Assembly (NCBI GenBank): GCA_964598535.1
Contig: CAZRCI010000005.1
Coordinates: 66,287 to 130,286 of the forward strand
Direction of reading: 5' to 3'
Source of the DNA: an uncultured Planctomycetaceae bacterium
GTDB lineage: Bacteria; Planctomycetota; Planctomycetia; Pirellulales; PALSA-1355
Length of the DNA stretch: 64,000 nt
Within the stretch, counting starts at the first letter, position 1. Each line of letters opens with the position of its first letter. The translations under genes were made by a program, and so were the position numbers. The notes beneath the pieces are model-generated. The model worked only from the letters and a program-made list of their open reading frames with translations, made no database searches and was not told where the DNA came from. Below, one piece after another: positions 1,473 to 18,704 of the stretch.

Positions 1473-1490
1473 GCGAAAGCAAGCGTCTCC

Positions 1491-3113
1491 ATGCCGAAAG
1501 TCATCGTCGACGGAATCGAAGTAGAGCTGGCCGAGGGCGAGCGGATCAACGGGATTCAGGCTGCGCAGCGCGCCGGCGTCGAGATTCCGCATTACTGCTG
1601 GCACGCCGGCTTGTCCGTGGTGGCCAGTTGCCGCATGTGCCTGGTCGAAACCGGCACGCGCAATCCGGAGACGGGCGACGTGACGATGGTGCCCAAGCTG
1701 GTGCCGGCCTGCCAGACGCCGGCCACGCCGAATACCGTGATCATCACGAACAGCGAGAAGGTGGCCAAGAGCCGGGCGATGGTCGAAGAAGATCTGCTCA
1801 TCGATCATCCGATCGACTGTCCGATCTGCGACAAGGCCGGCGAATGCTATTTGCAGGACTACCACTTCAAGTATGGGCAGGATCAGCGGCGCGCGGACAT
1901 TCGCCCGTTCACCAGCCGCCGCCGCGAAATGGGGGATACCGTCACGCTGTTTGTCGACCGCTGCGTGATGTGTACGCGTTGCGTGCGCTTCACACGCGAG
2001 ATCAGCGGTACCAGCGAGTTGATGGTGATCAACCGCGGCAGTCACGAAGAGATCGACGTCTTTCCGGGCTTTCCGCTCGACAACAAAATGTCGGGCAACG
2101 TGGTCGATCTTTGCCCCGTGGGAGCGCTGGGCGACAAGGACTTTCTCTATAAGCAGCGGGTGTGGTTCATGCGGAAGCATGACGGCGTATGCACCGGCTG
2201 CTCGACGGGCTGCTCGATCAGCGTCGAAGAAAACCAGGATACGGTGTATCGCCTCAAGCCGCGCGAGAATCCGCACATCAACCAGTGGTGGATGTGCGAC
2301 GAGGGGCGATACGGCTATCACTATATCCACAGCGATCGCCGGCTGACGAACGTCGAACGGCGCGACGGCGCCAACTGGACGTTGCTTGAATGGTCGCAGG
2401 TCGTACGCGAGATCGACGAACGATTTCGGGCGATTGGCCGCGTGGCGGTCGTGCTGTCGCCGCATCTGACGGTCGAAGAGGCCTACCTGCTGGCGAAGTA
2501 TGCCCGCGAGGTGGATCCGCAAGCGCAGGTGGTGCTCGGTCCGGTGCCGGTCGAAGGTCAGGACCAGACGTTCAAGAACGGCTTTTCGATCCGGGCCGAG
2601 AAATGTCCGAATCGGCGCGGCGTGGAAGAAGTTGTCACGCACTTTATGGGGCAGGTGGCGACGCTCGACAATTTGTTGATCGCGCTCCAGGGTGGCGAGC
2701 CGACGGCCGTGTGGGTGAGCGGCGGCTATAAGAGTGACTGGATCGACGCGGCTGCCGCCGATTCGCTGGCCGCGGCGGCGTGTCTCGTGGTGCAGGATTT
2801 GTTCGACTCGCCGCTCGCGGAGCGAGCCGCCTATCGATTGCCGGAAGGGGCGTTTGCCGAACGTGAAGGTTCTTACGTCAACGCCAACGATCGGTTGCAG
2901 AGTGTCGCCTGGGCGATTCGTCCGCCGGCCGGAGTGCGCGTGGCCGGCAGCGTGTATTGGGAGTTATCTGGCGAAATCGGCTTGTACAAGTCGCGCCGGG
3001 TGCTCGATGAAGTCGCCGAGCGAATCGCGTTTTTCGCGCCCGCGGCCGAGCCGGTCGGGCCGCTGGGCGTGGACTTGAAGACGCCGGTGCTCGAAGTGAC
3101 GACAACAGGCTAG
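1491..3113 (+). CDS. nuoG: NADH-quinone oxidoreductase subunit G (short form)
   Basis: 540-aa ORF. It has an N-terminal 2Fe-2S Cys pattern (CWH...SCRMCLVE) and Fe-S motifs HPIDCPICDKAGEC and CVMCTRCVRF...CPVGAL. A molybdopterin-oxidoreductase-like region follows (CTGCSTGCS). Shorter than typical 75-kDa subunits. Confidence 0.9.
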   Translation: MPKVIVDGIEVELAEGERINGIQAAQRAGVEIPHYCWHAGLSVVASCRMCLVETGTRNPETGDVTMVPKLVPACQTPATPNTVIITNSEKVAKSRAMVEEDLLIDHPIDCPICDKAGECYLQDYHFKYGQDQRRADIRPFTSRRREMGDTVTLFVDRCVMCTRCVRFTREISGTSELMVINRGSHEEIDVFPGFPLDNKMSGNVVDLCPVGALGDKDFLYKQRVWFMRKHDGVCTGCSTGCSISVEENQDTVYRLKPRENPHINQWWMCDEGRYGYHYIHSDRRLTNVERRDGANWTLLEWSQVVREIDERFRAIGRVAVVLSPHLTVEEAYLLAKYAREVDPQAQVVLGPVPVEGQDQTFKNGFSIRAEKCPNRRGVEEVVTHFMGQVATLDNLLIALQGGEPTAVWVSGGYKSDWIDAAAADSLAAAACLVVQDLFDSPLAERAAYRLPEGAFAEREGSYVNANDRLQSVAWAIRPPAGVRVAGSVYWELSGEIGLYKSRRVLDEVAERIAFFAPAAEPVGPLGVDLKTPVLEVTTTG

Positions 3114-3165
3114 AGATGACAACAGGCTAGAGATGACAACGGGTTAATGGGTGACGGGTTAAGGG
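3101..3165. repeat. Degenerate tandem repeat (17-bp unit) spanning the nuoG stop codon and the nuoG-nuoH spacer
   Basis: GACAACAGGCTAGAGAT occurs twice perfectly (3101-3117, 3118-3134). Diverged copies follow: GACAACGGGTTAATGGG (3135-3151) and TGACGGGTTAAGGG. Confidence 0.7.
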
Positions 3166-3172
3166 ACGCGCA

Positions 3173-4501
3173 ATGGACTGGCAATCGTTAATGCAGCCGC
3201 TGATCTTGCCGGTGGTGAAGATTGCGCTGTTGATCTTCATCATGATGACGGCGGCCGCCTATCTGGTGCTGCTCGAACGGTGGATCGCCGCCTGGGTGCA
3301 GGACCGCAAAGGCCCCAACCGCGTGGGCATCCCGCTGACCAAGATCAGAATGTTCGGGTTGGGGCAGCCGCTGGCCGACGGCTTGAAATTCATCTTCAAG
3401 GAAGAGTACACGCCGGCCCACGTGGAGAAAGTCCTGTATACGCTGGCGCCGATCGCGATCATGGCGTCGGCGCTGGCCGTGTTCGCCGTGGTACCGATTG
3501 GCGACGTGCTGCCGATCGAAGTGCCCGGCGTCGAGGGGCCGATCGAGCTGGTCGTCGCGCCGGGGCTCGACGTAGGCATGATTTATATTTTTGCCTTGAG
3601 CAGCATCGCCGTGTATGGCGTGATTCTGGGCGGTTGGAGCAGCAACAACAAGTATGGCTTTTTGGGCGCGCTGCGTTCGAGCGCGCAGCTCATCGCTTAT
3701 GAAATTCCGCTGGGGCTGGGAATTCTCGGCGTGGTGCTGGCCGCGGGTTCGTTACGGCTGGACACGATCATGGCCTCCCAGGCCGAGACGGGCTTGTGGA
3801 ACGTGTTTGCCCAGCCGCTAGGGTTCTCGGTGTTCGTGGTTGCCGCGTTTGCCGAGGCCGCGCGTCTACCGTTCGACCTGCCGGAAGCCGAGCAAGAACT
3901 GATTGGCGGTTATCACACCGAATACGCCGGCATGAAGCTGCTGTTGTTCTTGATCGCCGAGTTTCTGCACATGGTGGTGGCGGCGTTCCTGATTGTGATC
4001 CTGTTCCTGGGCGGGTGGCATTTTTGGGGAATGCCGGTCGCGGCCGATGAGCCGATCGGCTGGCCGCTGGCGATCGCCCGAATCGCAATCCTGGCGATCA
4101 AGGTGCTTTTGGTCATTGTGTTCTTCATGATGGTCCGCTGGAGCTGGCCTCGGTTCCGCTTCGATCAGCTCATGAACCTGGCCTGGAAAGTGATGTTGCC
4201 CTTGGGGCTGATTAATCTAGTGGCGCTGGCGATCGCTTATGAGTTCGAATATATGAACAATCTGACCGGCACGACCCGCGGACTGTGGATCATGGTGGCG
4301 GTGGGCTGGTCGGTGGCGATCGTGTCCTGGGTGCTGGCGGCCGTATTCTCACCCCTGCATACGGACAATCGCCCGCGGCTCGACGATTTGGAGGCTCCGG
4401 AGTATGAACCCGACGCGGTGCGGCAGATTCTGGCGGCGGGAAGCCACAGCGCTAGCTTAAAGAACGCTAGCCTGAAGGGCAGCGGCGTGAGTGGCCTGTA
4501 G
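3173..4501 (+). CDS. nuoH: NADH-quinone oxidoreductase subunit H with C-terminal extension
   Basis: 442-aa polytopic membrane protein with ND1/NuoH motifs (DRKGPNRVG, AEAARLPFDLPEAEQELIGGYHTEYAG). An extra hydrophobic helix plus a hydrophilic tail follow the usual end. Confidence 0.93.
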   Translation: MDWQSLMQPLILPVVKIALLIFIMMTAAAYLVLLERWIAAWVQDRKGPNRVGIPLTKIRMFGLGQPLADGLKFIFKEEYTPAHVEKVLYTLAPIAIMASALAVFAVVPIGDVLPIEVPGVEGPIELVVAPGLDVGMIYIFALSSIAVYGVILGGWSSNNKYGFLGALRSSAQLIAYEIPLGLGILGVVLAAGSLRLDTIMASQAETGLWNVFAQPLGFSVFVVAAFAEAARLPFDLPEAEQELIGGYHTEYAGMKLLLFLIAEFLHMVVAAFLIVILFLGGWHFWGMPVAADEPIGWPLAIARIAILAIKVLLVIVFFMMVRWSWPRFRFDQLMNLAWKVMLPLGLINLVALAIAYEFEYMNNLTGTTRGLWIMVAVGWSVAIVSWVLAAVFSPLHTDNRPRLDDLEAPEYEPDAVRQILAAGSHSASLKNASLKGSGVSGL

Positions 4502-4536
4502 TGCCTCGCGGAACCATTTTTTGAAACGAAGCGTTC

Positions 4537-5070
4537 ATGCAAGCCAACGACCCCAATATCAAGTGGATCGAAGAACCCAAGCTCGGGCTCGTGGGGAGGA
4601 TGTACCTGCCGCTGTTCGTGCAGGGGTTGACGACCACGACCAAGCACTTGCTGGGCCCGAAGGTCACGGTCAGCTATCCGGACGTGCGTCCGACGATCGG
4701 CAATCCGTTGATCTATCGTGGCGTGCACCGGCTGAACAAGGACGAGCAAGGCCGTGTGAAGTGCGTGGCCTGCTTTTTGTGCGCGACCGCGTGTCCAGCG
4801 CACTGCATCGACATCGTGGGGGTGGAAAGCCCCTGGCCGGATCGGGAAAAGTATCCCCAGAGCTTTACGATCGACGAACTGCGGTGCATTTTCTGCGGCA
4901 TGTGCGAAGAAGCCTGCCCGGTGGATGCGATCGAGCTTACGAGCTTGTTTGACCTGACGGGCCGCAGCCGCGAAGAGATGATCTTCGACAAAGAGAAGCT
5001 GCTGAGCGTGTACGACCAGACAAAGGATGCCGAGCCGATGAAGTCGAAGGCCCTGGGAGGCACTCTGTGA
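4537..5070 (+). CDS. nuoI: NADH-quinone oxidoreductase subunit I (2x 4Fe-4S ferredoxin)
   Basis: 177 aa with two CxxCxxCxxxCP motifs (CVACFLCATACP, CIFCGMCEEACP). Confidence 0.95.
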   Translation: MQANDPNIKWIEEPKLGLVGRMYLPLFVQGLTTTTKHLLGPKVTVSYPDVRPTIGNPLIYRGVHRLNKDEQGRVKCVACFLCATACPAHCIDIVGVESPWPDREKYPQSFTIDELRCIFCGMCEEACPVDAIELTSLFDLTGRSREEMIFDKEKLLSVYDQTKDAEPMKSKALGGTL

Positions 5071-5795
5071 ACACGCCGTTGGCAATGATTGGCGGCGCGA
5101 CGTTGCTGCTGGCGGCGGGCCTATGGCTGTCACTGCCGCGTGGCCGCGCTCCGGGCAGGGCGCTTGGCGCCGTGCTTGTAGCCGTCGGGCTGGGGCTGTT
5201 CGCCTCGCTGACGGTGCCGCTGGGAAATAACGTGGCGGAGGTGGTGTTCTACCTGCTTGCGGCGCTGACGGTGATCAGTGCCGTGGCGACGATTTCGTTT
5301 CGGAATCCGGTGTATTCGGCCATCTGGTTCGCGTTGTCGCTATTGGGCACCGCGGCGCTGTTTTTGTTCAATGGGGCCCAGTTTCTCGGTGTCGCCACGA
5401 TCGTGGTCTATGCAGGGGCGATTCTGGTGACGTTTTTGTTCGTGCTCATGCTGGCCCAGCCCGAGGGACAGGCGCCGTATGATCGCGTGAGCTGGGCGGC
5501 GCCCTTGTCGGCGATTAGCGGAACGCTGTTGGTGGGGCTGTTGACGTTCGTGCTGGTGGGCGTGTTTCAGAATCCCACGGTCGAGGAACGGCCCGCCGTG
5601 CGGGTTGATCAAGCACAATTGGCCGACGGCGTGCTGGCCGACCAGCATATGGCGACGCTGGGCCGCTGGCTGTTCGGCCGGCAATTGGTGTCGATCGAAG
5701 TGGTGGGTACGCTGCTGCTGGTGGCACTCGTGGGAGCGGTAGCGATCGTGGGACAAATTCATCGCCGCGAACGGGGAGGGCCGATGCATGGATGA
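5067..5795 (+). CDS. nuoJ: NADH-quinone oxidoreductase subunit J
   Basis: 242-aa membrane protein at the expected operon position. GTG start overlaps the nuoI stop (GTGA). ND6-like hydrophobic profile. Confidence 0.88.
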   Translation: MNTPLAMIGGATLLLAAGLWLSLPRGRAPGRALGAVLVAVGLGLFASLTVPLGNNVAEVVFYLLAALTVISAVATISFRNPVYSAIWFALSLLGTAALFLFNGAQFLGVATIVVYAGAILVTFLFVLMLAQPEGQAPYDRVSWAAPLSAISGTLLVGLLTFVLVGVFQNPTVEERPAVRVDQAQLADGVLADQHMATLGRWLFGRQLVSIEVVGTLLLVALVGAVAIVGQIHRRERGGPMHG

Positions 5796-6231
5796 GCTCG
5801 CCCTGCTGGAAAAATATCTCATGGTCGGCGCGTTGCTCTTCGGCATCGGGCTGGCGGGCTTCTTCAGCCGGCGGAACATGATCGTGATGTTCCTTTCGGT
5901 GGAGATGATGCTGCAAGGCGTGTCGGTGAGCCTGGTCGCCTGGGGGCGGTATCACAACGATTGGGGCGGGCAACTGCTGGTAATTTTCATTTTGACGATC
6001 GCAGCTTGTGAAGCCGCGATTGCCCTGGCCGTGGTGCTCTCGCTATTCCATAAGGGCGGATCGCTCGACATCGCACTCTGGCAACAACTGCGCGAGGACA
6101 ACCAGCCCGCGTTCACCGATCCGAAGTTTCCGGAACCGAAAAAGGACGAGCCTCGGTGGCCGAAGCTCACGCCGGCGGGTATCGAGCCATCGGTCGATCC
6201 GGACGAGATCATGCAGCGCATGCACGTGTAA
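5788..6231 (+). CDS. nuoK: NADH-quinone oxidoreductase subunit K with hydrophilic C-terminal tail
   Basis: 147 aa. The first ~100 aa match the ND4L/NuoK pattern (three TM helices, conserved Glu in SVEMML and CEAAIALA). A ~45-aa charged tail follows. Start overlaps nuoJ by 8 nt. Confidence 0.9.
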   Translation: MDELALLEKYLMVGALLFGIGLAGFFSRRNMIVMFLSVEMMLQGVSVSLVAWGRYHNDWGGQLLVIFILTIAACEAAIALAVVLSLFHKGGSLDIALWQQLREDNQPAFTDPKFPEPKKDEPRWPKLTPAGIEPSVDPDEIMQRMHV

Positions 6232-6282
6232 CGCCGGCCGACCACCGTTTAGCAACGAACCCAGCGAACCGATTCCTTAACG

Positions 6283-8409
6283 ATGAACGATACGATCCCA
6301 TTTTTGTTGGCCCTGATTCCGGCGTTGCCGCTGCTGGCGGCGATCGTCACGGCGGTCTTTGGCCGTTGCGTGCTGAAGGAGAAGAGCCATCTGCCGGTCG
6401 TGTTCGCCCTGATCGGGTCGTTCGCGTGCAGTGCCCTGCTGCTGGCGGAAGTCAAGATGGGGATCGCCGAGGCTTCGTCCAACGAGGCCACGGCTTCGAG
6501 CACCGTTGGTTGGGAGACCACTTCCACGCTCTGGACCTGGGCTCAGGTCGAGGATGCGATCGCGACCAGCGGCGTCTCGCACGCCGCGCCGGTCGCCGGT
6601 GAAAAGCTGCCGGAGTCGCTGCCCTTTACCATCGAGATTACCCAACGCGCGGACACCCTGACCGCGATCATGCTCGCGATGGTGACGTTTGTCGCGTCGC
6701 TCGTGGCGATCTATGCCAGCGGCTACATGCACGGTGACCGCGGCTATTGGCGGTTCTTCTCGTATGTCGGATTGTTTGTGTTCTCGATGACGATGCTGGT
6801 TTCAGTCAGCAATTTCGTCCTGCTGTTCGTGTTTTGGGAAGCGGTCGGCCTGTGCAGTTATCTGCTGATCGGTTTCTGGTATGAGAAGCCCGAGGCCGCC
6901 GCGGCCGGCAAAAAGGCGTTCTTGGTGAACCGGATTGGCGATTTCGGCTTCGCGTTGGGACTGTTTTTGATCTGGACGACCTACGGCACGCTGAACTTCC
7001 ACGACGCAGGCGGAGTTGCCGGCGTGTTGGGGCAAACCCGACTCGCGCAGCCCTCGCTGATCGCGGGCTTTAGCGACAGTTACGGCACGGTGGCCACGGC
7101 GATCTGCCTGCTGTTGATGCTGGGCGCCTGCGGCAAGAGCGCCCAATTTCCGCTGCATGTCTGGCTGCCGGACGCGATGGAAGGTCCCACGCCCGTGAGC
7201 GCCCTGATTCACGCGGCGACGATGGTCACGGCCGGAGCCTACATGGTAACGCGCTGCTCGCCGCTATTCTTCGCGTCGCCGGATGCTCAACAGGTGGTGG
7301 CGATTCTCGGCGGCACGACGGCCGCGATCGGCGGCGTGATCGCGATTACGCAGACCGATCTGAAACGCGTGCTCGCCTATTCGACGATCAGCCAGCTTGG
7401 CTATATGTTCCTCGGCCTGGGGCTGGGAACCATCGCCGGTATTACGTCGGGCATGTTCCACCTGTTCACGCATGCGTTCTTCAAGGCGCTGCTGTTTCTG
7501 GGCGCGGGCAGCGTCATGCATGCGATGGGCGGCGTCATCGACATGCGCCGCTTCAGCGGTCTGCGGAAGCTGATGCCGGTCACCCACTGGACGTTTCTAT
7601 TCGGCTGCTTGGCGCTCGGCGGCGTGATTCCGTTTGCGGGCTTTTGGAGCAAAGACGCGATCATCGCCGCGACTTACGAACGCGGCATGCTCGAAGGCAT
7701 CGCCGTGTACAAAACCTTGTACTGGGTGGCGACGATCGTGGCGTTCCTCACGGCGTTCTATACGTTCCGGGCGTACTTCCTGACGTTCTTTGGCGAAGAG
7801 CGAATTCCGCACGAGGCTGGGCATCACGCGCACGAGTCGCCACCGTCGATGACGGTGCCCCTGCGGGTACTGGCGGTCTGCTCGTTGGTCGTGGGCGCGT
7901 ACTTCACCTACACCGGCGGATTCGTGGACTTTTTGAGTAAAACGCCCCAGTTGGAGTTCGCGCCGCTCGCGGCCACGGCTTCGCATGGGGAGCATGCGCA
8001 CGCGGCGCATCAGCTTGTGAGCGTGGTCGGCACGATCATCGCTCTGGTGGCAATCGGCCTGGCGGCGTTTTTGTATCTGGGCGATCACACATTGATCAGC
8101 AAGTTGCGGCAACTGGCCGGCCCGCTGTACTGGCTGTCGTACGGCAAGTTGTTTTTCGATCCGATTTATTACGCCGTGGCGGTGTGGCCGTCGCTGCAAC
8201 TGGCAAAGCTAAGCTACTGGTTCGATCGCAAAGTGATCGACGGTTTGGTGAACTTCGTGGGGCGCGTGCCGCCGTGGCTGGGGGCGCTCTTGCGGCCGCT
8301 GCAGAGCGGATTGGTACAGTTTTACGGCGTGGCGATGGTGTGGGGCGTGCTCGTGCTGTTGATCACGCTGCTGGTATGGCCGACCCTCGCGGCGACATTT
8401 ACAAAATAA
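6283..8409 (+). CDS. nuoL: NADH-quinone oxidoreductase subunit L
   Basis: 708-aa antiporter-like subunit (WEAVGLCSYLLIGFW, SAQFPLHVWLPDAMEGPTPVSALIHAATMV) with a long C-terminal region. Confidence 0.93.
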   Translation: MNDTIPFLLALIPALPLLAAIVTAVFGRCVLKEKSHLPVVFALIGSFACSALLLAEVKMGIAEASSNEATASSTVGWETTSTLWTWAQVEDAIATSGVSHAAPVAGEKLPESLPFTIEITQRADTLTAIMLAMVTFVASLVAIYASGYMHGDRGYWRFFSYVGLFVFSMTMLVSVSNFVLLFVFWEAVGLCSYLLIGFWYEKPEAAAAGKKAFLVNRIGDFGFALGLFLIWTTYGTLNFHDAGGVAGVLGQTRLAQPSLIAGFSDSYGTVATAICLLLMLGACGKSAQFPLHVWLPDAMEGPTPVSALIHAATMVTAGAYMVTRCSPLFFASPDAQQVVAILGGTTAAIGGVIAITQTDLKRVLAYSTISQLGYMFLGLGLGTIAGITSGMFHLFTHAFFKALLFLGAGSVMHAMGGVIDMRRFSGLRKLMPVTHWTFLFGCLALGGVIPFAGFWSKDAIIAATYERGMLEGIAVYKTLYWVATIVAFLTAFYTFRAYFLTFFGEERIPHEAGHHAHESPPSMTVPLRVLAVCSLVVGAYFTYTGGFVDFLSKTPQLEFAPLAATASHGEHAHAAHQLVSVVGTIIALVAIGLAAFLYLGDHTLISKLRQLAGPLYWLSYGKLFFDPIYYAVAVWPSLQLAKLSYWFDRKVIDGLVNFVGRVPPWLGALLRPLQSGLVQFYGVAMVWGVLVLLITLLVWPTLAATFTK

Positions 8410-8443
8410 CGCGGCGAAACGAACTTAGCGGAGAATTGGTTCT

Positions 8444-10198
8444 TTGGACCCGATGTCGACACTCTTGCTCGTGACAATTCTGCTACCGGCGGTTGGCGCG
8501 GTGGTCGTGTGCCTGTTGGCGGACCAGGGAGCCAGTGGCACGCGGCAAGCGGCGCTCGTCACGTCGCTTTTGACGCTGGTGTTGGCGGGCGCGCTGGCTT
8601 GGAACTTCGAACCGCCCACGGAGCCGGCAATTCCGTTCGCGGCTTCCACGTTCGAGTGGCTGGGTCCCTCGTCGCACGTGAACGTTGAGTTCAGCCTGGG
8701 GCTCGACGGCCTTAGCATCTGGCTATTCGCGCTCTCCGCGCTGCTACTCGTAACGTGCGTGCTCGTAAGTTGGGAGGCGATCACCGACCGGCCCGCGGTG
8801 TTTTATAGCCTGCTGCTGATGCTCGGCAGCGGCATGTTGGGGGTGTTCGCCGCGCGCGATTTGATCCTGTTTTATATCTTCTTCGAGTTCACACTGATCC
8901 CGCTGTTCTTCTTGATCGGCGTATGGGGCTCGGAAGACCGTCGTTATGCCGCGGTGAAATTTTTTCTGTTTACGCTGGCCGGCAGCCTGTTCACGTTTCT
9001 GGGGCTACTGACGATCGTGCTTTGGAATTACAACCATTCTGAAGCTGCTCAGATGACGTTTTCGATTCATGAGCTGACGGCCGGGCTTGCGGCGCATCCG
9101 CTGGCCCAGCCGTATCAACTGTGGGTATTTTTGGCGCTTTTCGCGGGTTTTGCGATCAAGGTGCCACTCTTCCCGCTGCATACCTGGTTGCCGCTCGCGC
9201 ATACGCAAGCGCCCACGGCCGGTAGCGTGCTGTTGGCCGGCGTGTTGCTGAAGATCGGAACGTATGGCTTTGCGCGGTTCAGCATTCCGATGTTGCCGGA
9301 GGCCACGGCCACGTGCGTTCCGTGGATCCTCTCGCTGTCGGCGGCGGGAATCATCTACGGCGCGCTCGTGGCCCTGGTGCAAACCGACATGAAGCGGCTG
9401 ATCGCCTATAGCAGCGTAAGTCACCTGGGCTTCTGCATGTTGGGCTTGTTTGCCCTGATGCCGGTTAGTGTTGAAGGCGGTGTGCTGCAGATGGTCAACC
9501 ACGGCCTGTCGACCGGCGGACTGTTCGCCATCGTGGGCATGATCTACGAACGTTATCACACCCGTGAGATCGCCCAGTTCGGCGGAATCGCGCGGCGGAC
9601 ACCGGTGCTGGCGTTCTTCTTCTTGCTGTTTACGTTGTCGAGCATCGGCCTGCCGGGCATGAACGGCTTCGTGGGCGAGTTCATGGTGCTCATCGGGATG
9701 TTCCAGCGGGCCTGGACCGGCGCGCCCGAGGGGCTGCAACTGTTGTACAAGGTGGTTGCCGTGGCCAGCGTGTCGGGCGTGGTGCTGGGGGCCTGGTACA
9801 TGCTGTACCTGGTGCAACGGGTGTTCTTCGGACCGCTGCGCGAGCCTGTGACTCATGGACACGACGAGCCGCATGCGGTGCATCATGGCGGTCATGGGCA
9901 CGATGGCCACAGCCACGATAGCCACGGACATGGCGGCGGAAGCATTCCGCCGAGTTCGGTGCGAGATCTTTCGTTTCGCGAGATCATGGCTGTGGCTCCC
10001 TTGGTGGTATTCGTATTTTGGATTGGCTTGTATCCCGAGTTTTTCCTGCGGCAGATGCAGTCGACGCTCGAGCCGCTCTCGCGCGGTGCGCAGCAGGCGG
10101 TTGTGCGGCGGTACGCCGATCCCGCGACCCTGGCACTTGAAGAAACAACAGGGCGGGCAGATCAGCTCGCTGGGGGAGTAACGACGCGTGTCCAATGA
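8444..10198 (+). CDS. nuoM: NADH-quinone oxidoreductase subunit M with His-rich insertion
   Basis: 584-aa ND4-like protein (FPLHTWLPLAHTQAPTAGSVLLAGVLLK). The TTG start at 8444 could instead be ATG 8453. A His-rich loop lies near the C-terminus. Confidence 0.92.
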   Translation: MDPMSTLLLVTILLPAVGAVVVCLLADQGASGTRQAALVTSLLTLVLAGALAWNFEPPTEPAIPFAASTFEWLGPSSHVNVEFSLGLDGLSIWLFALSALLLVTCVLVSWEAITDRPAVFYSLLLMLGSGMLGVFAARDLILFYIFFEFTLIPLFFLIGVWGSEDRRYAAVKFFLFTLAGSLFTFLGLLTIVLWNYNHSEAAQMTFSIHELTAGLAAHPLAQPYQLWVFLALFAGFAIKVPLFPLHTWLPLAHTQAPTAGSVLLAGVLLKIGTYGFARFSIPMLPEATATCVPWILSLSAAGIIYGALVALVQTDMKRLIAYSSVSHLGFCMLGLFALMPVSVEGGVLQMVNHGLSTGGLFAIVGMIYERYHTREIAQFGGIARRTPVLAFFFLLFTLSSIGLPGMNGFVGEFMVLIGMFQRAWTGAPEGLQLLYKVVAVASVSGVVLGAWYMLYLVQRVFFGPLREPVTHGHDEPHAVHHGGHGHDGHSHDSHGHGGGSIPPSSVRDLSFREIMAVAPLVVFVFWIGLYPEFFLRQMQSTLEPLSRGAQQAVVRRYADPATLALEETTGRADQLAGGVTTRVQ

Positions 10199-11795
10199 GA
10201 CAGCTTATCTGCTGCTGCCGGAAATTATCTTGGTGCTGGCCGGCACGTTGATTTACCTCGGCGGGGCATTTGCGCCGGGCAAATCGGTATGGGCCGCGGT
10301 CGCTGCGCTCGCGGTGTTGTGTGCCGGCTGCGCGCTCGCACAGCAGGGAACCACCGAGACTGTACAAAAAGCTTTCGCAAGCGGCGCAATCAGCGGGCCA
10401 CTTTCGATTGACTGGTTTTCAGCGGCGTTTCGTTACGGGGTACTGGCCGTGGGCCTGGTGTTCGCGCTGGTCGCCGCACGCTGGACCGGCGAAGGAGATC
10501 AGGCCGAGTTTCAGGGCTCGTTGCTGATGATTCTGGCCGGGCTGATGCTCGTGTCGCTAGGCAACGACCTGGTGCTCGTGTTCGTGGGGCTCGAGTTGGT
10601 TTCCATTCCGACCTATGTGGTGCTCTACCTGGGGCGCGGAACCAACCTGCTCGAGTCGGGCACGAAGTATTTCTTTCTCAGCGTGCTGTCGAGCGCGCTG
10701 ATGCTATACGGGTTTAGCTTTCTGTACGGCGTAGCCGGTTCGACGAGCCTCATCGACATCCGCGAGGCCTTCGCGCATCCGGACGCCGACGCCGTGCGGC
10801 TGCTGCCGTTCGCGCGGTTGGCGTTGATTCTGATTTTTGCCGGCCTGGCTTTCCGGCTTACGGCGGTGCCGTTCCACTTTTATGCACCGGATGTCTACCA
10901 GGGAACCAGCAACGTGAATGCCGGGTTGCTGGCGGTGATTCCGAAGATCGCGGCGCTGGCGGCCATCGTGCGAATCATCTATGCCGCGATGCCGGGGCTA
11001 GAACAGGTTGGTTGGCAACTTACGCTGGCCGTGGCGATGGTTACGATGACGCTGGGCAACCTGCTTGCTCTCTGGCAATCGAACGTGCGGCGGATGATGG
11101 CCTATTCTTCGATCGCGCACGCCGGTTACATGCTGATTGGGCTGGCGGTTGGCTTTGCCACGGCCGGTGGTGCGGTCGTGGCCGAAGGGCTTGATGGCGT
11201 GGGGGCGACGTTGTTCTATCTGCTGGTCTATGCTGCTGCCACGGCGGGCGTCTTCGCCGCGTTGGCATATCTCAGCGGTGAACGCCGGATCGTCAGCACG
11301 CTGGACGATCTCGCGGGCATCAGCAGTTCCTATCCCAAGTCGGCCGCGGCGCTCGCGCTGTTCATGTTTTCGTTGGCCGGGTTGCCGCCCCTGGCGGGAT
11401 TCTGGGGCAAGTTCACGCTCTTTACGGGAGCCCTGAGCGTGGATGCGAGAAATCCGGAGACCGGTAATCTGTGGCCTTGGTTCTTGGCGTTGGCCGTGGT
11501 GGGCGTGTTGAATGCCGCCATTTCGGCGGCCTACTACCTGCGGCTGATCGGCGTGATGTATTTCCGTAGCGGAACAACGGCGCCCGAGGGACGCGGCGGC
11601 GCGGGAGCAGCCTGGGCCACGGGGCTGTGTGCGCTGGCGGTGCTGGGGATCGGCGCCTTTCCAGGACCGCTGATCGAAGCCGGCAAACGTGCCAGTCGGG
11701 CCGCACGCGACGTTTCACCTCAGATGCTCGCCGGTGAAGCACCGCGTGCGGGCGACCAGGCAGCGCATGCCAAGCGGCCGTCCTTGGTACCGTAA
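10188..11795 (+). CDS. nuoN: NADH-quinone oxidoreductase subunit N
   Basis: 535-aa ND2-like protein (FHFYAPDVYQGTSN). GTG start overlaps nuoM by 11 nt. Last gene of the nuo series. Confidence 0.92.
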   Translation: MSNETAYLLLPEIILVLAGTLIYLGGAFAPGKSVWAAVAALAVLCAGCALAQQGTTETVQKAFASGAISGPLSIDWFSAAFRYGVLAVGLVFALVAARWTGEGDQAEFQGSLLMILAGLMLVSLGNDLVLVFVGLELVSIPTYVVLYLGRGTNLLESGTKYFFLSVLSSALMLYGFSFLYGVAGSTSLIDIREAFAHPDADAVRLLPFARLALILIFAGLAFRLTAVPFHFYAPDVYQGTSNVNAGLLAVIPKIAALAAIVRIIYAAMPGLEQVGWQLTLAVAMVTMTLGNLLALWQSNVRRMMAYSSIAHAGYMLIGLAVGFATAGGAVVAEGLDGVGATLFYLLVYAAATAGVFAALAYLSGERRIVSTLDDLAGISSSYPKSAAALALFMFSLAGLPPLAGFWGKFTLFTGALSVDARNPETGNLWPWFLALAVVGVLNAAISAAYYLRLIGVMYFRSGTTAPEGRGGAGAAWATGLCALAVLGIGAFPGPLIEAGKRASRAARDVSPQMLAGEAPRAGDQAAHAKRPSLVP

Positions 11796-11820
11796 GCGGC
11801 CATGGCCGCTTACGGCTTTG
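11790..11820 (+). terminator. Candidate intrinsic terminator overlapping the nuoN stop codon
   Basis: Perfect inverted repeat CCGTAAGCGG-CCATGG-CCGCTTACGG (11790-11815) followed by CTTTG. The U-tract is weak. Confidence 0.45.
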
Positions 11821-12006
11821 GAAGGCGGGTGGCGAGTGGATGGGGGTGATGTGCTCCTAGGGCACAACTGTCGTGGAAGCCGGATTCTCCTGGGATTTTC
11901 TCGCGTGCCTTTCGCGACGAGCTGCGATTGTGCTGTCAGCTCGGTGGTACTCGCGCAGCCGAGTAATTATGCTTACTTGTGGGGCGGAGCTACCACGAGA
12001 GGCGGC

Positions 12007-13410
12007 ATGTCTTTTTCCAACGATGCGGCGGTCGAATTGGCCAGGTTCCTGGGCAACGGCGCGGCTCCTATCTATGTCCTTGATGAGGATCGGCGAATTG
12101 TCTTCTACAACGCGGCCTGCGCGGCATGGCTAGGGATAAGCGCCGACGCGTTGCTAGGACAGAAGTGCAACTACCATACGCCGGCTGGCGATGCTCTCGA
12201 GGGCGGGACGTTGGCGGCGCTGGCCGCCGGGCTTTGCCCGCCTCCTCAGGCATTTGCGGGACGAGCCCAATCCGCGACCGTGAGCATTGGCCGAGCCGAC
12301 GGCCGCGCTGCGACGCGGCGGGGACATTTTCTTCCGCTGGCCCACGGCGAGGACGAGAGTTCGCCGGTGGTCGCGATTTTGGAAACGGCCGATGAGGCGT
12401 CCGTGCACCCAACGGATCGCGACACGCCGCTCGACAATATGTCGCTCGATGCGCTGCACGACGCGGTGCGAAGCTACCGGCGGCAATGGGCGGGCCGTTT
12501 CAGCGCCGATCGTCTGATCGGCGAGCATCCGCAGATCGTGCGAGCACGGGCGCAGGTGCTGCTCGCCGCGGGCAGCGCCTCCAACGTCACGATCGTTGGA
12601 CCGCCCGGCACCGGAAAGGAGCATGCCGCGAAGGCCATTCACTACGGCCAGGCGGAAGCTGGGTTGCTCGTGCCGATCGATTGCGTGCTGATGGAAACCA
12701 ATCTGTTACGCAGTACGCTACGGACGCTTTGCGCGCGGAAAGCATTGAGGCCGGCACGGAGCACGCTGCTGGTGGAACATGCCCAGCACATGCCGGCCGA
12801 GGTACAGAGCGATTTGACGGAAGTGCTCGGCGACGGCTCGCTCGGAATGCGTGCGATCGCACTTTGCGAGAGACCATTGCACGCGCTGGCTTCGGACGGC
12901 ACTTTTTCGGCCCATCTGGCGTGTGCGCTTGGCACGCTGGTTATCGAATTGCCGCCGCTGGCCGAACGTATCGAAGATCTGCCGCTCTTGGCCCAGGCCC
13001 TGCTCGAAGAGCAGAACGCATCGCAGCTTCGCCAACTCGCGGGCTTCTCCCCCGAGGCGCTCGATCAGCTTGCCGCGTACCCTTGGCCGGGCAACCTGGA
13101 CGAGTTGCAAGTCCTGGTGCGCGAGCTTCATGAGAAGGCGGCGGGGCCGCGAATCGTGCCGCGCGACTTGCCGCGAACCATCTACTGGGGCGCCGAAGCG
13201 GCAACCGGGCCCCGCGGCGAAGAGCCGATGGTCTTGGAAGAGTTTTTGGCCCGCGTGGAACGCGAGCTTATCGCTCGCGCCATGCGGAAAGCCAAGGGGA
13301 ACAAAAGCCGGGCGGCAAAGATGCTGGGCCTCACCCGGCCGCGGCTGTATCGGCGATTGGTTCAATTGGGTTTGGAGCCGCCGAGCGAGCAGGAACTAAC
13401 CGAATCCTAG
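12007..13410 (+). CDS. PAS-AAA+-HTH regulator, degenerate sigma-54-activator (bEBP)-like protein
   Basis: I chose the in-frame ATG at 12007 (MSFSNDAAVE...) because the 11689 start overlaps nuoN and runs through its terminator hairpin. It carries Walker A GPPGTGKE and a C-terminal Fis-type HTH (KSRAAKMLGLTRPRLYRRL). Compared with the NtrC-type protein at 35646-37082, it lacks the ESELFGH...GSFTGA segment and has LLVEHA in place of LFLDEI. Confidence 0.8.
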   Translation: MSFSNDAAVELARFLGNGAAPIYVLDEDRRIVFYNAACAAWLGISADALLGQKCNYHTPAGDALEGGTLAALAAGLCPPPQAFAGRAQSATVSIGRADGRAATRRGHFLPLAHGEDESSPVVAILETADEASVHPTDRDTPLDNMSLDALHDAVRSYRRQWAGRFSADRLIGEHPQIVRARAQVLLAAGSASNVTIVGPPGTGKEHAAKAIHYGQAEAGLLVPIDCVLMETNLLRSTLRTLCARKALRPARSTLLVEHAQHMPAEVQSDLTEVLGDGSLGMRAIALCERPLHALASDGTFSAHLACALGTLVIELPPLAERIEDLPLLAQALLEEQNASQLRQLAGFSPEALDQLAAYPWPGNLDELQVLVRELHEKAAGPRIVPRDLPRTIYWGAEAATGPRGEEPMVLEEFLARVERELIARAMRKAKGNKSRAAKMLGLTRPRLYRRLVQLGLEPPSEQELTES

Positions 13411-13414
13411 CGGA

Positions 13415-13939
13415 GTGTTTTCCACGCTTGGCCCCTGGTCACTTTTGGGGATGCGACCTACGATGAAGCCCGAGACATTGGCAACTTCGCCGCTGGCTAT
13501 GTCCAGCAAACCGCGATTGATCGTTTGCGAGCGGTCAGGGCAGTGGGCCGCCGGCCTCAAAAGAGCGGCGGTGCGTGAGGTTTCGATCCGCGAAACTCGT
13601 TCGCTGGCCGAATGCCAGGCCGAATTGTCGCAGAATCCTAGCAGCTTTGTCGTGGTCGAGCTAACGGCCACGAATATTCGCGAGGTGCTGGAATTCGTGG
13701 CGCGGATTGGCCGTGACTTTCGTTGGGCACGTTCAGCCGTGGTCGCCGAGAGGCGGTTGGCGGAATGCGAGTGGGCGATGCGCGAGGCAGGAGCGGTGTA
13801 TTTTGCCATGTCGCCGTCGGCGGCGCGAGATATTACGCGGTTCGCCGTTCGGCAGGCGGCGTTTGTGCCGCAGCCCAAGCGGAGCCTGGCCACGCGAATT
13901 TGGGATTCGCTGCCTTGGCCGGAAGCGACAACAGGCTAG
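13415..13939 (+). CDS. Hypothetical protein with pseudo-receiver (CheY-like, non-phosphorylatable) architecture
   Basis: 174-aa ORF starting 4 nt after the regulator stop. The start could also be ATG 13451 or 13463. It aligns by eye to the receiver domain at 35646, but the conserved residues are replaced: DD->CE, phospho-Asp->Glu (FVVVELT), Thr->Ala and Lys->Met. Confidence 0.55.
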   Translation: MFSTLGPWSLLGMRPTMKPETLATSPLAMSSKPRLIVCERSGQWAAGLKRAAVREVSIRETRSLAECQAELSQNPSSFVVVELTATNIREVLEFVARIGRDFRWARSAVVAERRLAECEWAMREAGAVYFAMSPSAARDITRFAVRQAAFVPQPKRSLATRIWDSLPWPEATTG

Positions 13940-14020
13940 CGGTGGTGACCGGCAAGACCTGTGGCGCGATCGCCAACGTCGCAAAATCAAAGACACTTAC
14001 GACGGAAGGACTATTTTCCG

Positions 14021-15109
14021 ATGACAGACCAGAAGCTCGATCAAGCGGCCGTCACGGCGGCGCTCCAATTGTTTCTCGATCCGGAAACCGGCCGCAGCGT
14101 GGTCGCGAACGGGCAAATCAGCAGCATTCAGGTCCAAGGCGGTCACGTAGCGGTCACGCTTGGGCTTACATCGCACGAGGCGATCATTCGTGACGAAACG
14201 GCAGCGGCCCTGGCCAATCATCTCCGTAAGAACCTGCCTGGCGTTCAAGACGTGAATGTCTCTGTGACCGAGCACCAGCGTCCCGCGCCGAAGATCGGTC
14301 AGGTGGGACTTACGGCGAAGAGTGTGATTGCCGTCGGCTCCGGCAAGGGCGGCGTGGGCAAGAGCACCATCGCCACGTCGTTGGCTATCGGTTTGGCGCG
14401 CGCGGGAAGCAAAGTCGGATTGATGGACGCCGACGTTTATGGTCCGAGCATTCCACATTTGCTGGGCGTAAACCAGCGGCCGGCGATCGAAGACAACCGC
14501 ATTCAGCCGATCGAAGCGGCCGGAATGAAAGTCATTTCGATGGGCTTTCTAGTACCGCCGGGAGAGGCCGTTGTGTGGCGCGGGCCGATGCTGCACGGTG
14601 CGATCACACAATTTTTGCGCGACACGGCCTGGGGGGACCTCGACTATTTGATCATCGACATGCCGCCCGGCACCGGCGACATCGCGCTTACGCTGTCGCA
14701 GCTCTTGCCGCTGTCGGGCGCGGTGATCGTTTGCACTCCGCAGGATGTCGCGCTACTCGATGCGATCAAGGCGGTGGCGATGTTTCGCAAAGTAAACATT
14801 CCCATCTTGGGAATGGTCGAGAACATGAGTGGATTCGTTGCGCCCGAGACGGGAAAGCGCTACGACATTTTCGGTTCTGGCGGCGCGCAGAAGAAAGCCG
14901 TGGAGCTAGGTATTCCGTTCCTCGGCGAAGTACCGATTCATATCGCGATTCGCGAATTGGGCGACGCGGGGCGTGCCGCGGCGGTGTTCGACGATCCGGC
15001 AAGCGCGGCGCATCTCGAGCGGTTGTGCTTGAATCTGGTGCGAAACTTGGCCGCCAATAAGTCGACGGGCAGCGGGCCCGAAGGAGCCTTGCCGGTTTTG
15101 AGTCTGTAG
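14021..15109 (+). CDS. apbC: Fe-S cluster carrier ATPase Mrp/ApbC with N-terminal DUF59-like domain
   Basis: P-loop GSGKGGVGKST and a conserved CTPQ Cys region. The start is taken at ATG 14021 (MTDQKLDQAAV...) rather than the longer ORF-track start at 13961. Confidence 0.92.
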   Translation: MTDQKLDQAAVTAALQLFLDPETGRSVVANGQISSIQVQGGHVAVTLGLTSHEAIIRDETAAALANHLRKNLPGVQDVNVSVTEHQRPAPKIGQVGLTAKSVIAVGSGKGGVGKSTIATSLAIGLARAGSKVGLMDADVYGPSIPHLLGVNQRPAIEDNRIQPIEAAGMKVISMGFLVPPGEAVVWRGPMLHGAITQFLRDTAWGDLDYLIIDMPPGTGDIALTLSQLLPLSGAVIVCTPQDVALLDAIKAVAMFRKVNIPILGMVENMSGFVAPETGKRYDIFGSGGAQKKAVELGIPFLGEVPIHIAIRELGDAGRAAAVFDDPASAAHLERLCLNLVRNLAANKSTGSGPEGALPVLSL

Positions 15110-15248
15110 CGGTAAGTCGTTGAGATGAATTGGTTTATCTCGACCCCTGTGGCGTGGTTCACCGCGGATGCGGGGCGCGATGGTTGATCGGCCTCGCCAC
15201 TGGGAGTTCCTGTCCCAGTTGGCCGCGTAGAGCACGTTGGCCGCGTAG

Positions 15249-15298
15249 AAAAAGCTAGAGCCGTTCGGACCAGAGATCCGAACGGCTCTTTCTCGTTG
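15249..15298. terminator. Bidirectional intrinsic terminator between convergent apbC and the micro-ORF
   Basis: Perfect 13-bp stem AGAGCCGTTCGGA / TCCGAACGGCTCT (15257-15269 / 15277-15289) with a 7-nt loop. An A5 run lies upstream and TTCTCGTTGT downstream, so a U-run follows the hairpin on both strands. Confidence 0.7.
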
Positions 15299-15358
15299 TA
15301 TTCAGGGTCGCTGACTTGAGCAGCGACGTACGGCAACTGAGTGCCGCCCGAAGAAGCG

Positions 15359-15433
15359 CTACTTCTTCTTCTTGGCCGCCTTCTTCTTGGGAGCAGCCTT
15401 CTTAGCAGCAGCTTTCTTCTTCTTCTTGGCCAC
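15359..15433 (-). CDS. 24-aa Lys/Ala-rich micro-protein (M/V-AKKKKKAAAKKAAPKKKAAKKKK)
   Basis: GTG at 15433-15431 is preceded by a perfect AGGAGG (15446-15441) at 7-nt spacing, with TAG stop at 15361-15359. The 15249-15298 hairpin plus U-run lies downstream on the same strand. The 73-aa ORF-track version extends into AT-rich, non-coding-looking sequence. Confidence 0.5.
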   Translation of the reverse strand: MAKKKKKAAAKKAAPKKKAAKKKK

Positions 15434-15610
15434 AGTCCGTCCTCCTAAAAAGTTGTTGGCAAGATCCGTCTCGGTGACCTCCAAGTCACTAGATTGCTCC
15501 GAGCGAGTCCTACCTGAACAAAAAACAAAAGCCATCTCTTGTGAAGCAACGTGTGCTCCATGTTGAGAGAGCTTTAACACACCCGAGTTCAGGAAAGATC
15601 ATGAGTCTCA

Positions 15611-17429: not shown

Positions 17430-18704
17430 TCAGGCCGCGGTGCGCGTTTGCGGCCGGCTGGGCGGTGCGGAAGGCGCCGCCGGTCGGGGCAAATAGTGAG
17501 GCGTCGGGACCGGCTGCGGCCGTTGGGCCAGGTCGGCCAGGATGTATTCCGCGGCGCTGCGCGCAGCGCCACCATGTCCAACTTCGGCTTTGAGCTGGGT
17601 AAGCCGCTCGACCAGCCGCTGGCGTTCATCGCGGTCGGTGAGCCAGCGAATGACATGGCCTGCGAGCTGGCGCGACTTATCGCCGCACGTGACGTATTCG
17701 GGGTAGAGCACCTCGGGCGTCTCGCCGGCCTCGGGATCATAGGTCGTCGCATCGCCATCGAAGGGATCGTTGGACGAGAGCAAGTTGACCAGCGTGATGT
17801 ACTTCACGCGGCGATAACGCCGCTGGAGCACGTAGCCTAGGCGCGAGATCCAGTAGAGGATCGCCGTGGGTTTGCATTGGTAGAGCAGTTCGAGCGATAC
17901 CGAACCGGACACGGCCAGACAGCAATCGGCCAGATGGATGAGCTCGGGCGTACGTTTGAGAAACACTTGGATCTCAAGACCGCTGGCGGCGACGGCCTGG
18001 CGCGCCATCTCAGCCTGGTGCGGTTTGAATGCCGCGATGGCAAAGCGAGCTTGGGGCACCTGTTGATGGATGATCGCCGCGGCTTTCAAAAAGTACCGCA
18101 GGTTGTGTTCGACCTCCTGGGTCCGCGAGCCGGGAAGAATCGCCACGAGCGGGCGCGTGTCGTCGCGATGTTCGGCCAGGAACCGTGGATCGAGCCGTTG
18201 GCGACGAACTTCATCGAAGTAAGGATGGCCAATGAACGTGGCGTTGGCGCCACGATCGCGGTACCAACGCTGCTCGAATGGCAAACTGCATAGCACGTGG
18301 TCGACAAACCGGCGCACCTTGCGAATGCGATGCGTGGCCCAGGCCCAGACTTGCGGCGGCGCGAAGTAGAACACCGGAATTCCGTGTGCTTTCGCCCGGC
18401 GGGCGATCCACCAGTTGAAGCCTGGGTAGTCGATGAGCACCACGGCGTCAGGACGGTGATGGCGGAAATAGCGATCTGCCCGGCCGGCGAGCGCCAGAAA
18501 CTTATGGATGTTCAGGATCACGCGAAGCACCCACATCACGGCCAACACCGTCATGTCGGTGTGCAGCTTACAGCCGGCGGTCGCCATCTCCGGGCCACCA
18601 TAGCCGACGGCCTCGATATCGTTGCCCTGAGCGTGGAGTTGCCGAATGAGATTTGCGCCGTGCAAGTCGCCACTAGGTTCGCCGGCCGAAAAGAAGATCT
18701 TCAT
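17430..18704 (-). CDS. lpxB: Lipid-A-disaccharide synthase with Pro-rich C-terminal tail
   Basis: N-terminus MKIFFSAGEPSGDLHGANLI is typical of LpxB, and GT19-like sequence continues throughout. A ~40-aa P/A-rich extension ends the protein. Confidence 0.93.
   Translation of the reverse strand: MKIFFSAGEPSGDLHGANLIRQLHAQGNDIEAVGYGGPEMATAGCKLHTDMTVLAVMWVLRVILNIHKFLALAGRADRYFRHHRPDAVVLIDYPGFNWWIARRAKAHGIPVFYFAPPQVWAWATHRIRKVRRFVDHVLCSLPFEQRWYRDRGANATFIGHPYFDEVRRQRLDPRFLAEHRDDTRPLVAILPGSRTQEVEHNLRYFLKAAAIIHQQVPQARFAIAAFKPHQAEMARQAVAASGLEIQVFLKRTPELIHLADCCLAVSGSVSLELLYQCKPTAILYWISRLGYVLQRRYRRVKYITLVNLLSSNDPFDGDATTYDPEAGETPEVLYPEYVTCGDKSRQLAGHVIRWLTDRDERQRLVERLTQLKAEVGHGGAARSAAEYILADLAQRPQPVPTPHYLPRPAAPSAPPSRPQTRTAA

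Follow-up and report, generated by a model that had tools for sequence, protein, structure and literature searches.

The 64,000-nt stretch of DNA analysed here as a whole, and referred to as the window, comes from an uncultured Planctomycetaceae bacterium (GenBank assembly GCA_964598535.1, contig CAZRCI010000005.1, positions 66,287 to 130,286) and has a G+C content of ~61%. Near its start a complex I operon extends on the forward strand from NuoF to NuoN (120-11795), as identified by Pfam complex I domains; NuoF, G, H, J, L, M and N are matched, and the intervening gaps could accommodate NuoI and NuoK. The final complex I gene, nuoN (10188-11795, forward strand; Proton_antipo_M and other complex I domains), is followed after a spacer of 211 nt by the two genes that are the subject of this study, which we call A and B. 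Gene A (12007-13410, forward strand) encodes a 467-aa regulator composed of a PAS domain, a degenerate AAA+ domain, a lid and a Fis-type helix-turn-helix (HTH), while gene B (probably 13463-13939, forward strand) encodes a stand-alone aspartate-less receiver of 158 aa. Next on the same strand is a gene for an Mrp/NUBPL-type P-loop ATPase with an N-terminal FeS_assembly_P domain (14021-15109; Pfam PF10609, E = 6e-96, and PF01883). The order nuoN, A, B and Mrp/NUBPL is also the usual one in relatives.

Gene A begins at an ATG (12007) preceded by GAGAGG, and the N-terminal Met is nearly invariant in its homologues. Pfam assigns PAS_4/PAS (weakly), Sigma54_activ_2, AAA_lid_14 (E = 3.8e-15) and HTH_8 (E = 3e-12) to the protein, but the Sigma54_activat profile is matched at positions 1-70 of 168 only (E = 2.8e-9). 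By comparison, the intact NtrC-type regulator at 35646-37082, which a preliminary description of this DNA had singled out as an internal reference, matches all 168 positions (E = 5e-71) and also carries Response_reg. No NCBIfam equivalog cut-off is even approached by gene A: the best score is for AtoC (136 bits vs. a cut-off of 714), and the protein falls outside the curated NtrX (91 bits vs. 600) and TyrR (40 bits vs. 576) equivalogs.

The motifs lost by gene A were read from residue alignments to the NtrC of the window, ZraR and FleQ. The P-loop (Walker A) is retained as GPPGTGKE (12598-12621), as is the Fis-type HTH (HTH_8, 13231-13371), which is the best-conserved part of the protein; together with the PAS domain, these are the elements that the preliminary description had listed as kept. 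The remnant of Walker B (12766-12783) reads LLVEHA in place of LFLDEI, such that DE is changed to EH. It is framed by two deletions of 11 residues each: the one just upstream removes the L1/GAFTGA loop and the one just downstream removes the L2/pre-sensor-I hairpin. The same description had already reported the Walker B change, the first deletion and the missing GAFTGA loop, all of which we confirm; it had also noticed the second deletion, whose size it gave as 9 residues. Further along the chain, FREDLMFRI is replaced by FSAHLACAL, with the loss of both arginine fingers, and GNVREL by GNLDEL, in which the sensor II Arg has become Asp. Judged from these alignments, gene A is devoid of every element for sigma-54 contact or ATP hydrolysis, and only the P-loop is left.

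The predicted structure of gene A (AlphaFold2 with 54 homologues) is confident, with a predicted local distance difference test (pLDDT) score of 88.9. Its strand and helix order is that of the AAA+ domain of bacterial enhancer-binding proteins (bEBPs) minus two insertions, with 5 residues only between helix 264-276 and strand 282-287. Foldseek matches the model to ZraR, NtrX, NtrC1, FleQ, DmpR and VpsR, and two proteins that have no GAFTGA motif, NtrX and VpsR, are among the closest folds.

These losses are shared by a whole family. More than 120 relatives of gene A, all from Pirellulales-type Planctomycetota, have equal length and 47-78% identity, and residues were counted in 118 aligned members. 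L1 and L2 are missing from all 118, none of which has a GAFTGA motif. The Walker B Asp position is occupied mainly by Glu (40), Asn (40) or Ser (15) and by Asp in 3/118, and the following Glu position by Asp (73), Glu (14), His (10) or Asn (10). Arginine finger 1 is Ser in 65 members and Arg in 31; arginine finger 2 is Ala in 58, Leu in 24 and Arg in 8; and sensor II is Asp in 114/118. In the P-loop, G198, G201 and G203 are invariant, with Lys (81) or Arg (37) at the Lys position. Mean column identity across the family is 58%, and the HTH is almost invariant (N432, K433, A436, A437, L440, G441 and the run R444-R450). The recurrence of identical losses in 118 relatives indicates a selected family rather than a pseudogene, and the near-invariance of the HTH points to selection as a DNA-binding protein in which the AAA+ shell serves a purpose other than hydrolysis.

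The PAS domain of gene A (12019-12396) contains three Cys residues, C38, C54 and C77 (the latter in a CPPP motif), that are essentially invariant in the family, and H57 is conserved in 95/118 members. Three further cysteines are frequent in the family and missing from the protein of the window. When the domain is searched as a profile, LOV-type PAS domains come out on top (6rhg, E = 1.4e-5). Here C54 coincides with the photoactive Cys of the LOV motif GxNCRFLQ and C77 is found at the end of the F-alpha helix, but the flavin-holding Arg, Gln and Asn of LOV domains are not conserved. The three invariant cysteines suggest a thiol, redox or metal signal, and the pocket may thus be a cysteine-lined sensor based on a thiol/disulfide, a metal or an iron-sulphur (Fe-S) cluster.

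The longest open reading frame (ORF) of gene B starts at GTG 13415, which is 4 nt past the stop codon of gene A, as the preliminary description had stated. However, the public gene call (P0001, 158 aa) starts at ATG 13463, and the gap between the two genes is therefore probably 52 nt. In the 13463 reading, homologues show no conservation ahead of R18 (near nt 13514). A fusion of A and B by readthrough was considered and rejected, as the frames differ (frame 1 for 12007; frame 2 for both 13415 and 13463).

As a single sequence, gene B has no match in Pfam (E up to 1), in NCBIfam or among PDB sequences. Its confident AlphaFold2 model (42 homologues, pLDDT 87.5) consists of five strand-helix units, i.e. 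a (beta-alpha)5 fold, and an extra C-terminal helix. Foldseek matches in the PDB are almost exclusively receivers, with target-normalised TM-scores of up to 0.83, and the assignment of a receiver fold in the preliminary description is upheld. The top match is the atypical receiver of TadZ (4lda, E = 1.2e-4); others include the HupR receiver, a Thermotoga response regulator, CpaE, KdpE and NtrX, and rank 20 is taken by chain O of mycobacterial complex I (8e9g_O, 12% identity). The family profile also reaches receivers by sequence, though weakly (2qxy, E = 5.6e-4; 3grc, E = 0.021).

In order to map the active site, we used the alignments of the family profile to receivers and an hhalign alignment to the NtrC receiver of the window. 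The acidic pair (DD) corresponds to E23-R24, the acceptor Asp to E66 (invariant in the 42 homologues), the Thr/Ser to A95, the Lys-Pro to S117-P118 and the aromatic switch residue to F114. Two of the four substitutions proposed earlier, Asp to Glu and Thr to Ala, are thus found at E66 and A95. The other two need correction: C22 is the final residue of beta1, so the change in the acidic pair is not DD to CE, and the Lys is replaced by S117 and not by Met. Gene B is an aspartate-less receiver without phospho-acceptor chemistry. Receivers of this kind most often carry Glu in place of the acceptor Asp and have usually lost the second residue of the acidic pair (PMC4395418); the pattern in gene B, with Glu as acceptor, the first acidic residue kept and a basic residue in place of the second, is typical of them (PMC4395418).

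Nine residues of gene B, namely C22, E23, R24, W28, T45, R46, E66, G110 and A111, are invariant in the 42 closest members, and a C-terminal LPW motif is nearly so. By the usual topology of receivers, the invariant residues would lie on the former active-site face; along with the LPW motif, they speak for a binding surface that is conserved. When 1.84 billion proteins were searched exhaustively with a profile, relatives were found in 1,677 clusters at 50% identity, and the best 150 of these 1,677 are all stand-alone proteins of 120-252 aa, with no fusion to an AAA+ or Mrp domain among them.

Gene A was used to anchor a set of 80 metagenome loci, and gene B to anchor a set of 60 genomes, one per species, all but one of which are titled Planctomycetota (Pirellulales, Thermoguttaceae and Lacipirellulaceae). 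In the B-anchored set, A is directly upstream in 42/53 loci and Mrp directly downstream in 33/55. Where both flanks are covered (49 loci), B is accompanied by A and Mrp in 22, by A only in 19, by Mrp only in 8 and by neither in 0. In the A-anchored set, B is directly downstream in 53/67 loci and NuoN directly upstream in 30/46, and the 43 loci with both flanks covered comprise 20 with NuoN and B, 13 with B only, 9 with NuoN only and 1 with neither. A and B are hence adjacent in ~79% of loci from either anchor. The two genes always share a strand, mostly with under 200 nt between them, and the stop and start codons overlap in 12/79 pairs. The order nuoJKLMN-A-B is also found in a Thermoguttaceae genome, whose B and A are 50% and 43% identical, respectively, to those of the window. 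Where A is absent, B is as faithfully linked to Mrp/NUBPL.

The divergence of the proteins was compared by the mirror-tree approach, using pairwise distances. The correlation between A and B (r = 0.84) compares with r = 0.79 for A and NuoN and r = 0.68 for B and NuoN. The A-B correlation persists when NuoN (partial r = 0.69) or Mrp (partial r = 0.80) is taken into account, while that of B and Mrp given A vanishes (partial r = -0.07). These correlations favour, but do not prove, a functional pair of A and B over one of B and Mrp. The synteny of A and B, on which the preliminary description had made its reading depend, is present in relatives, with divergence that is correlated beyond that of the neighbouring genes. 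The losses of the arginine fingers and of sensor II, the family-wide degeneration, the linkage of B to Mrp and the invariant PAS cysteines are additions to the earlier account.

The preliminary description had also interpreted the two genes as a split NtrC-like module with the domain order reversed, and this interpretation is not supported by our results. Gene A has a common PAS-AAA+-HTH layout, in which PAS takes the place of the receiver of NtrC, and gene B resembles NtrC-type receivers no more than it does others, as TadZ tops its fold list. BLASTP of gene B against the NtrC of the window returned nothing, and an hhalign comparison of the profile of B with that of the NtrC receiver reached an E-value of only 0.048, so a specific origin from NtrC is not supported. 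Neither does the lack of an AAA+ fusion among the best 150 relatives speak for such a split. As an account of evolutionary origin, the split NtrC is unproven. Its functional counterpart, namely that the module can probably neither be phosphorylated nor contact sigma-54, agrees with the missing phospho-acceptor chemistry of B and the missing contact elements of A, and the idea of a repurposed pair immediately after the complex I operon is sound as a functional inference. The pair follows complex I in most relatives.

We consider the chance to be about even that A and B form a regulatory pair of the Pirellulales lineage, which derives from parts of two-component and sigma-54 systems and has abandoned their original chemistry. 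Such a pair could operate as follows. From its sequence we infer that gene A binds DNA through the conserved Fis-type HTH and that it acts in vivo independently of sigma-54, presumably as a repressor or activator at ordinary promoters, in the manner of Rhodobacter and Caulobacter NtrC, NtrX, TyrR and VpsR. Its input would be the N-terminal PAS domain, which probably senses redox state or a metal. With the P-loop kept and hydrolysis impossible, the AAA+ remnant would serve only as a scaffold for oligomerisation or ligand binding. Gene B, in which Glu occupies the acceptor position and Arg the metal site, would be locked in one chemical state. Most likely it binds A or relays between A and Mrp/complex I, through its active-site face and LPW tail, and it would modulate the oligomeric state or DNA binding of A without phosphorylation. 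The regulatory theme is likely to be respiration and Fe-S supply, with the nuo operon upstream and Mrp/NUBPL downstream.

Several known systems resemble parts of this arrangement. The bEBPs that lack GAFTGA (Rhodobacter capsulatus NtrC, Caulobacter NtrC, NtrX, TyrR and VpsR) share with gene A a bEBP-derived AAA+ domain and a C-terminal HTH. The nucleotide-binding motifs (Walker A and B) are retained in them and ATP binding is often required, and most of them carry a real or near-real receiver, or an ACT or PAS input domain, on the same chain. Their L1/GAFTGA region, like that of gene A, is deleted or altered, and they act at sigma-70 promoters; Rhodobacter NtrC requires ATP binding (bioRxiv 10.1101/2023.06.06.543975). 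What sets gene A apart from them is the additional loss of L2, Walker B, sensor II and the two arginine fingers, its position behind nuo and its pairing with a pseudo-receiver that has a gene of its own; with respect to NtrX and TyrR, it also scores far below the NCBIfam cut-offs.

Gene B has its own analogues in the aspartate-less receivers (RitR, ChxR, FrzS, the N-terminal domain of FleQ, TadZ/CpaE and plant pseudo-response regulators), which likewise have a (beta-alpha)5 fold and no acceptor Asp (PMC4395418, PMC12632262). E23-R24 is paralleled by Glu9-Lys10 of RitR, where the first acidic residue is kept and the second is basic, and Glu at the acceptor position and a retained aromatic switch residue (F114 in gene B) are shared features as well (PMC4395418). 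In contrast to these proteins, gene B is stand-alone, is invisible to Pfam Response_reg at E-values up to 1 and would thus go unnoticed in Pfam-based censuses. In addition, it has Ser instead of the conserved Lys, an extra C-terminal helix and the LPW tail, and it forms a family of its own that is confined to Planctomycetota.

The gene A family represents a conserved end-state of the bEBP scaffold, from which all hydrolysis residues are gone in addition to the sigma-54 loop that NtrX, TyrR and VpsR have lost as well. Its P-loop, lid and HTH are still under selection, making it a natural test of what a non-catalytic AAA+ shell does in a transcription factor. Gene B, for its part, adds a large family of stand-alone pseudo-receivers (the 1,677 clusters above) unseen by Pfam surveys. 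The placement of both between the complex I operon and Mrp/NUBPL provides a concrete candidate for a regulator of respiration and Fe-S supply in Planctomycetota, one that can be compared with the receiver subunit of complex I in mycobacteria; in the literature that we searched, we found no description of the A/B family or of such regulators in this phylum.

The pair has to be weighed against other explanations, two of which give gene B a different partner. It could mainly serve Mrp/NUBPL as the adaptor or regulator of a MinD/ParA-class ATPase, in the way of a split TadZ/CpaE or, with A included, of a split FleQ/FleN; we regard this as unlikely. In its favour, TadZ tops the Foldseek list of gene B and CpaE receivers are on it as well, Mrp adjoins B in all 8 of the both-flank loci without an adjacent A, B is never seen without A or Mrp in the 49 such loci, and the two genes abut or overlap in loci L015, L026 and L056. 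Moreover, FleQ AAA+ complexed with FleN is among the structural matches of gene A (8p53, 7ejw), and the locus shares with FleQ-FleN the combination of a pseudo-receiver (B), an AAA+-HTH protein of the bEBP type (A) and a P-loop ATPase of the MinD/Mrp class. FleQ, however, keeps ATPase activity and sigma-54 contact and has its receiver fused, and the ATPase of the locus is of the Mrp/NUBPL Fe-S carrier type and not FleN; with its FeS_assembly_P domain, and the CxxC motif present in 52/61 relatives, it resembles a housekeeping Fe-S carrier. The Foldseek scores of TadZ are also barely different from those of ordinary receivers, the divergence of B is untied to that of Mrp once A is accounted for, A and B occur without an adjacent Mrp in 19/49 loci, and a B-Mrp fusion is missing among the best 150 of the 1,677 clusters. 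Alternatively, gene B may be an accessory subunit or assembly factor of complex I, with A as a separate regulator encoded in between by chance, which we judge quite unlikely. The model here is MSMEG_2064/Rv3143, an orphan response regulator of a single receiver-fold domain that is likewise encoded with nuo genes. It sits on NuoB as a proven subunit of complex I in Mycobacterium smegmatis and sets a precedent for a receiver that acts on the respiratory chain by protein contacts (PMC10068793; PMC9274095). In the window, as in most relatives, gene B is encoded at the 3' end of the nuo cluster, it is followed by a gene of the Mrp/NUBPL type, whose eukaryotic homologue is a complex I Fe-S assembly factor, and 8e9g_O is among its structural matches; yet this match is no better than those to generic receivers, and the similarity amounts to the common fold only. 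MSMEG_2064 retains the canonical acceptor Asp63 and is encoded 5' of nuoA, whereas B is located 3' of nuoN and after A, which separates the two. In addition, B stays with A in the 13 loci that have A and B without nuoN, and it covaries more with A than with NuoN, i.e. it is tied tighter to A than to nuo. By covariation and by the way in which the cluster breaks up, both alternatives are less well supported than a pair of A and B.

Two further explanations deny A and B a new function. That they are functionless, decaying remnants of an NtrC-type two-component regulator might be suspected from the many catalytic residues lost in both. We reject this as effectively refuted by conservation: neither ORF is disrupted, full-length relatives of A number more than 118 and have a near-invariant HTH and invariant PAS cysteines, B has relatives in 1,677 clusters and nine invariant residues in the alignment of its 42 closest members, the substitutes are themselves conserved (sensor II Asp, E66), and the gene order is maintained across Pirellulales and Thermoguttaceae. 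It is also very improbable that gene A is still a sigma-54 activator, by means of a non-canonical contact and an ATPase borrowed from a partner. The genome does seem to retain sigma-54 machinery, as the canonical NtrC-type regulator has a GSFTGA loop, and gene A retains the P-loop, a bEBP-like lid and the HTH. However, L1 and L2 are gone in full, together with Walker B, sensor II and the two arginine fingers, sigma-54 contact is considered to require the GAFTGA loop (PMC12316311; bioRxiv 10.1101/2023.06.06.543975) and no -24/-12 promoter matches are found around the locus.

More elaborate, and in our opinion improbable, is a version of the A-B pair in which nuoN-A-B-Mrp is a feedback device that transmits the redox or Fe-S state of complex I to transcription without phosphoryl transfer. 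Here, B would be docked to complex I or the Mrp/NUBPL carrier, like MSMEG_2064 on NuoB. Depending on their state, it would come off and associate with the AAA+ scaffold of A, dead as an ATPase; the PAS pocket of A, lined with cysteines, would hold an Fe-S cluster or a redox-active thiol pair. Such a relay would be two-component-like and would depend on protein contacts throughout.

A number of points count against the regulatory pair of A and B itself. Gene B is found without an adjacent A in about one fifth of genomes, always beside Mrp, and A without B in about one fifth of loci, usually beside nuoN; as each occurs apart from the other, their roles may be separable. The r values of the mirror-tree analysis are inflated by shared phylogeny and by differences in rate. 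One third of the gene A family has Arg instead of the Walker A Lys, which makes even nucleotide binding uncertain. Physical contact between A and B and the cofactor and signal of the PAS domain are deductions, and the target genes of A are guessed from the neighbourhood alone, with the nuoA promoter lying outside the window; a 6.9-kb contig located through the NuoF of the window adds only about 1 kb of upstream sequence. Finally, a putative operator dyad found in another clade (see below) is missing from the clade of the window in spite of the conserved HTH.

Regulatory elements around the genes were examined as well. A perfect 26-bp palindrome (13+13 nt; CCGTAAGCGGCCA/TGGCCGCTTACGG) overlaps the nuoN stop codon (11790-11815). 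It is unique in the window, where none is expected by chance, and folds as RNA with -24.3 kcal/mol (z = -2.4). It is probably the 3' hairpin or terminator of the nuo transcript; as it has no T-run, its function as a terminator is inferred. Further downstream, a conserved promoter-like element on the forward strand (11943-11973) consists of GGTGGT and TATGCT separated by ~19 nt, with a TACTCG-N6-CGAGTA dyad in the spacer (11948-11965). In 8 relatives with A proteins of 45-78% identity, TGG (within GGTGG[A/T]) and A-TATGCT are invariant and have a fixed spacing, and in the clade of the window the element lies ~35-80 nt before the start codon of A. On this conservation it is the probable promoter of A-B(-Mrp), even though a consensus sigma-70 scan detects no promoter in 11500-15400. 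The sigma-54 (-24/-12) pattern does not occur near A, B or Mrp and its count across the window is at chance, and an Rfam scan of the whole window gave no matches. A strong, bidirectional terminator-like hairpin at 15257-15289 (stem of 13-15 bp, T-rich tails on both strands) closes the unit; between A, B and Mrp, the same type of scan finds no strong hairpin, only three stems of 5-8 bp inside B and Mrp. A, B and Mrp are probably one transcription unit.

The operator dyad mentioned above is an 18-bp sequence, GTGACA-N6-TGTCAC, which (allowing up to 1 mismatch) occurs 38 times in 1.2 Mb of related loci. All but two of these occurrences (36/38) are upstream of an A orthologue, at 58-255 nt with one outlier at -808, and they belong to one clade (e.g. 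L011:5398-5415, L013:5404-5421 and L034:5374-5391). The dyad is a likely operator candidate in this subclade, as judged by its position. It is missing from the window and its clade, where the best score is far below those of real sites, and it is thus not assignable as a site of A in the genome of the window.

Several other features of the window deserve mention. In the Mrp/NUBPL copy, the sequence at 14840-14851 is ENMSGFVAPETG, as compared to ENMSxFxCPxCG in relatives. The cysteines of the CxxC motif, which bridge an Fe-S cluster, are both missing here. The motif is present in 52/61 of the neighbouring Mrp genes of related loci; the loss is common only to the closest relatives (L004, L064 and L065), and in a few others one Cys is left (CPDN). 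Just past the terminator of the A-B-Mrp unit, a 73-aa ORF on the reverse strand (15359-15580) has a Lys/Ala-rich tail, KKKKKAAAKKAAPKKKAAKKKK, like those of histone H1-like or HU-tail DNA-binding proteins.

The canonical NtrC-type response regulator at 35646-37082 has the GSFTGA variant of the sigma-54 contact loop, and a 541-aa ORF that overlaps its start (34046-35671) may encode the cognate kinase. The presence of both at 34046-37082 suggests that a working sigma-54 system is kept by the genome. Lastly, an LpxB gene is located a few kb downstream of the A-B unit on the reverse strand of the window (17430-18704) and also in the Thermoguttaceae genome with the 50% identical B (L001:9352-10635), such that the conservation of this neighbourhood exceeds four genes.

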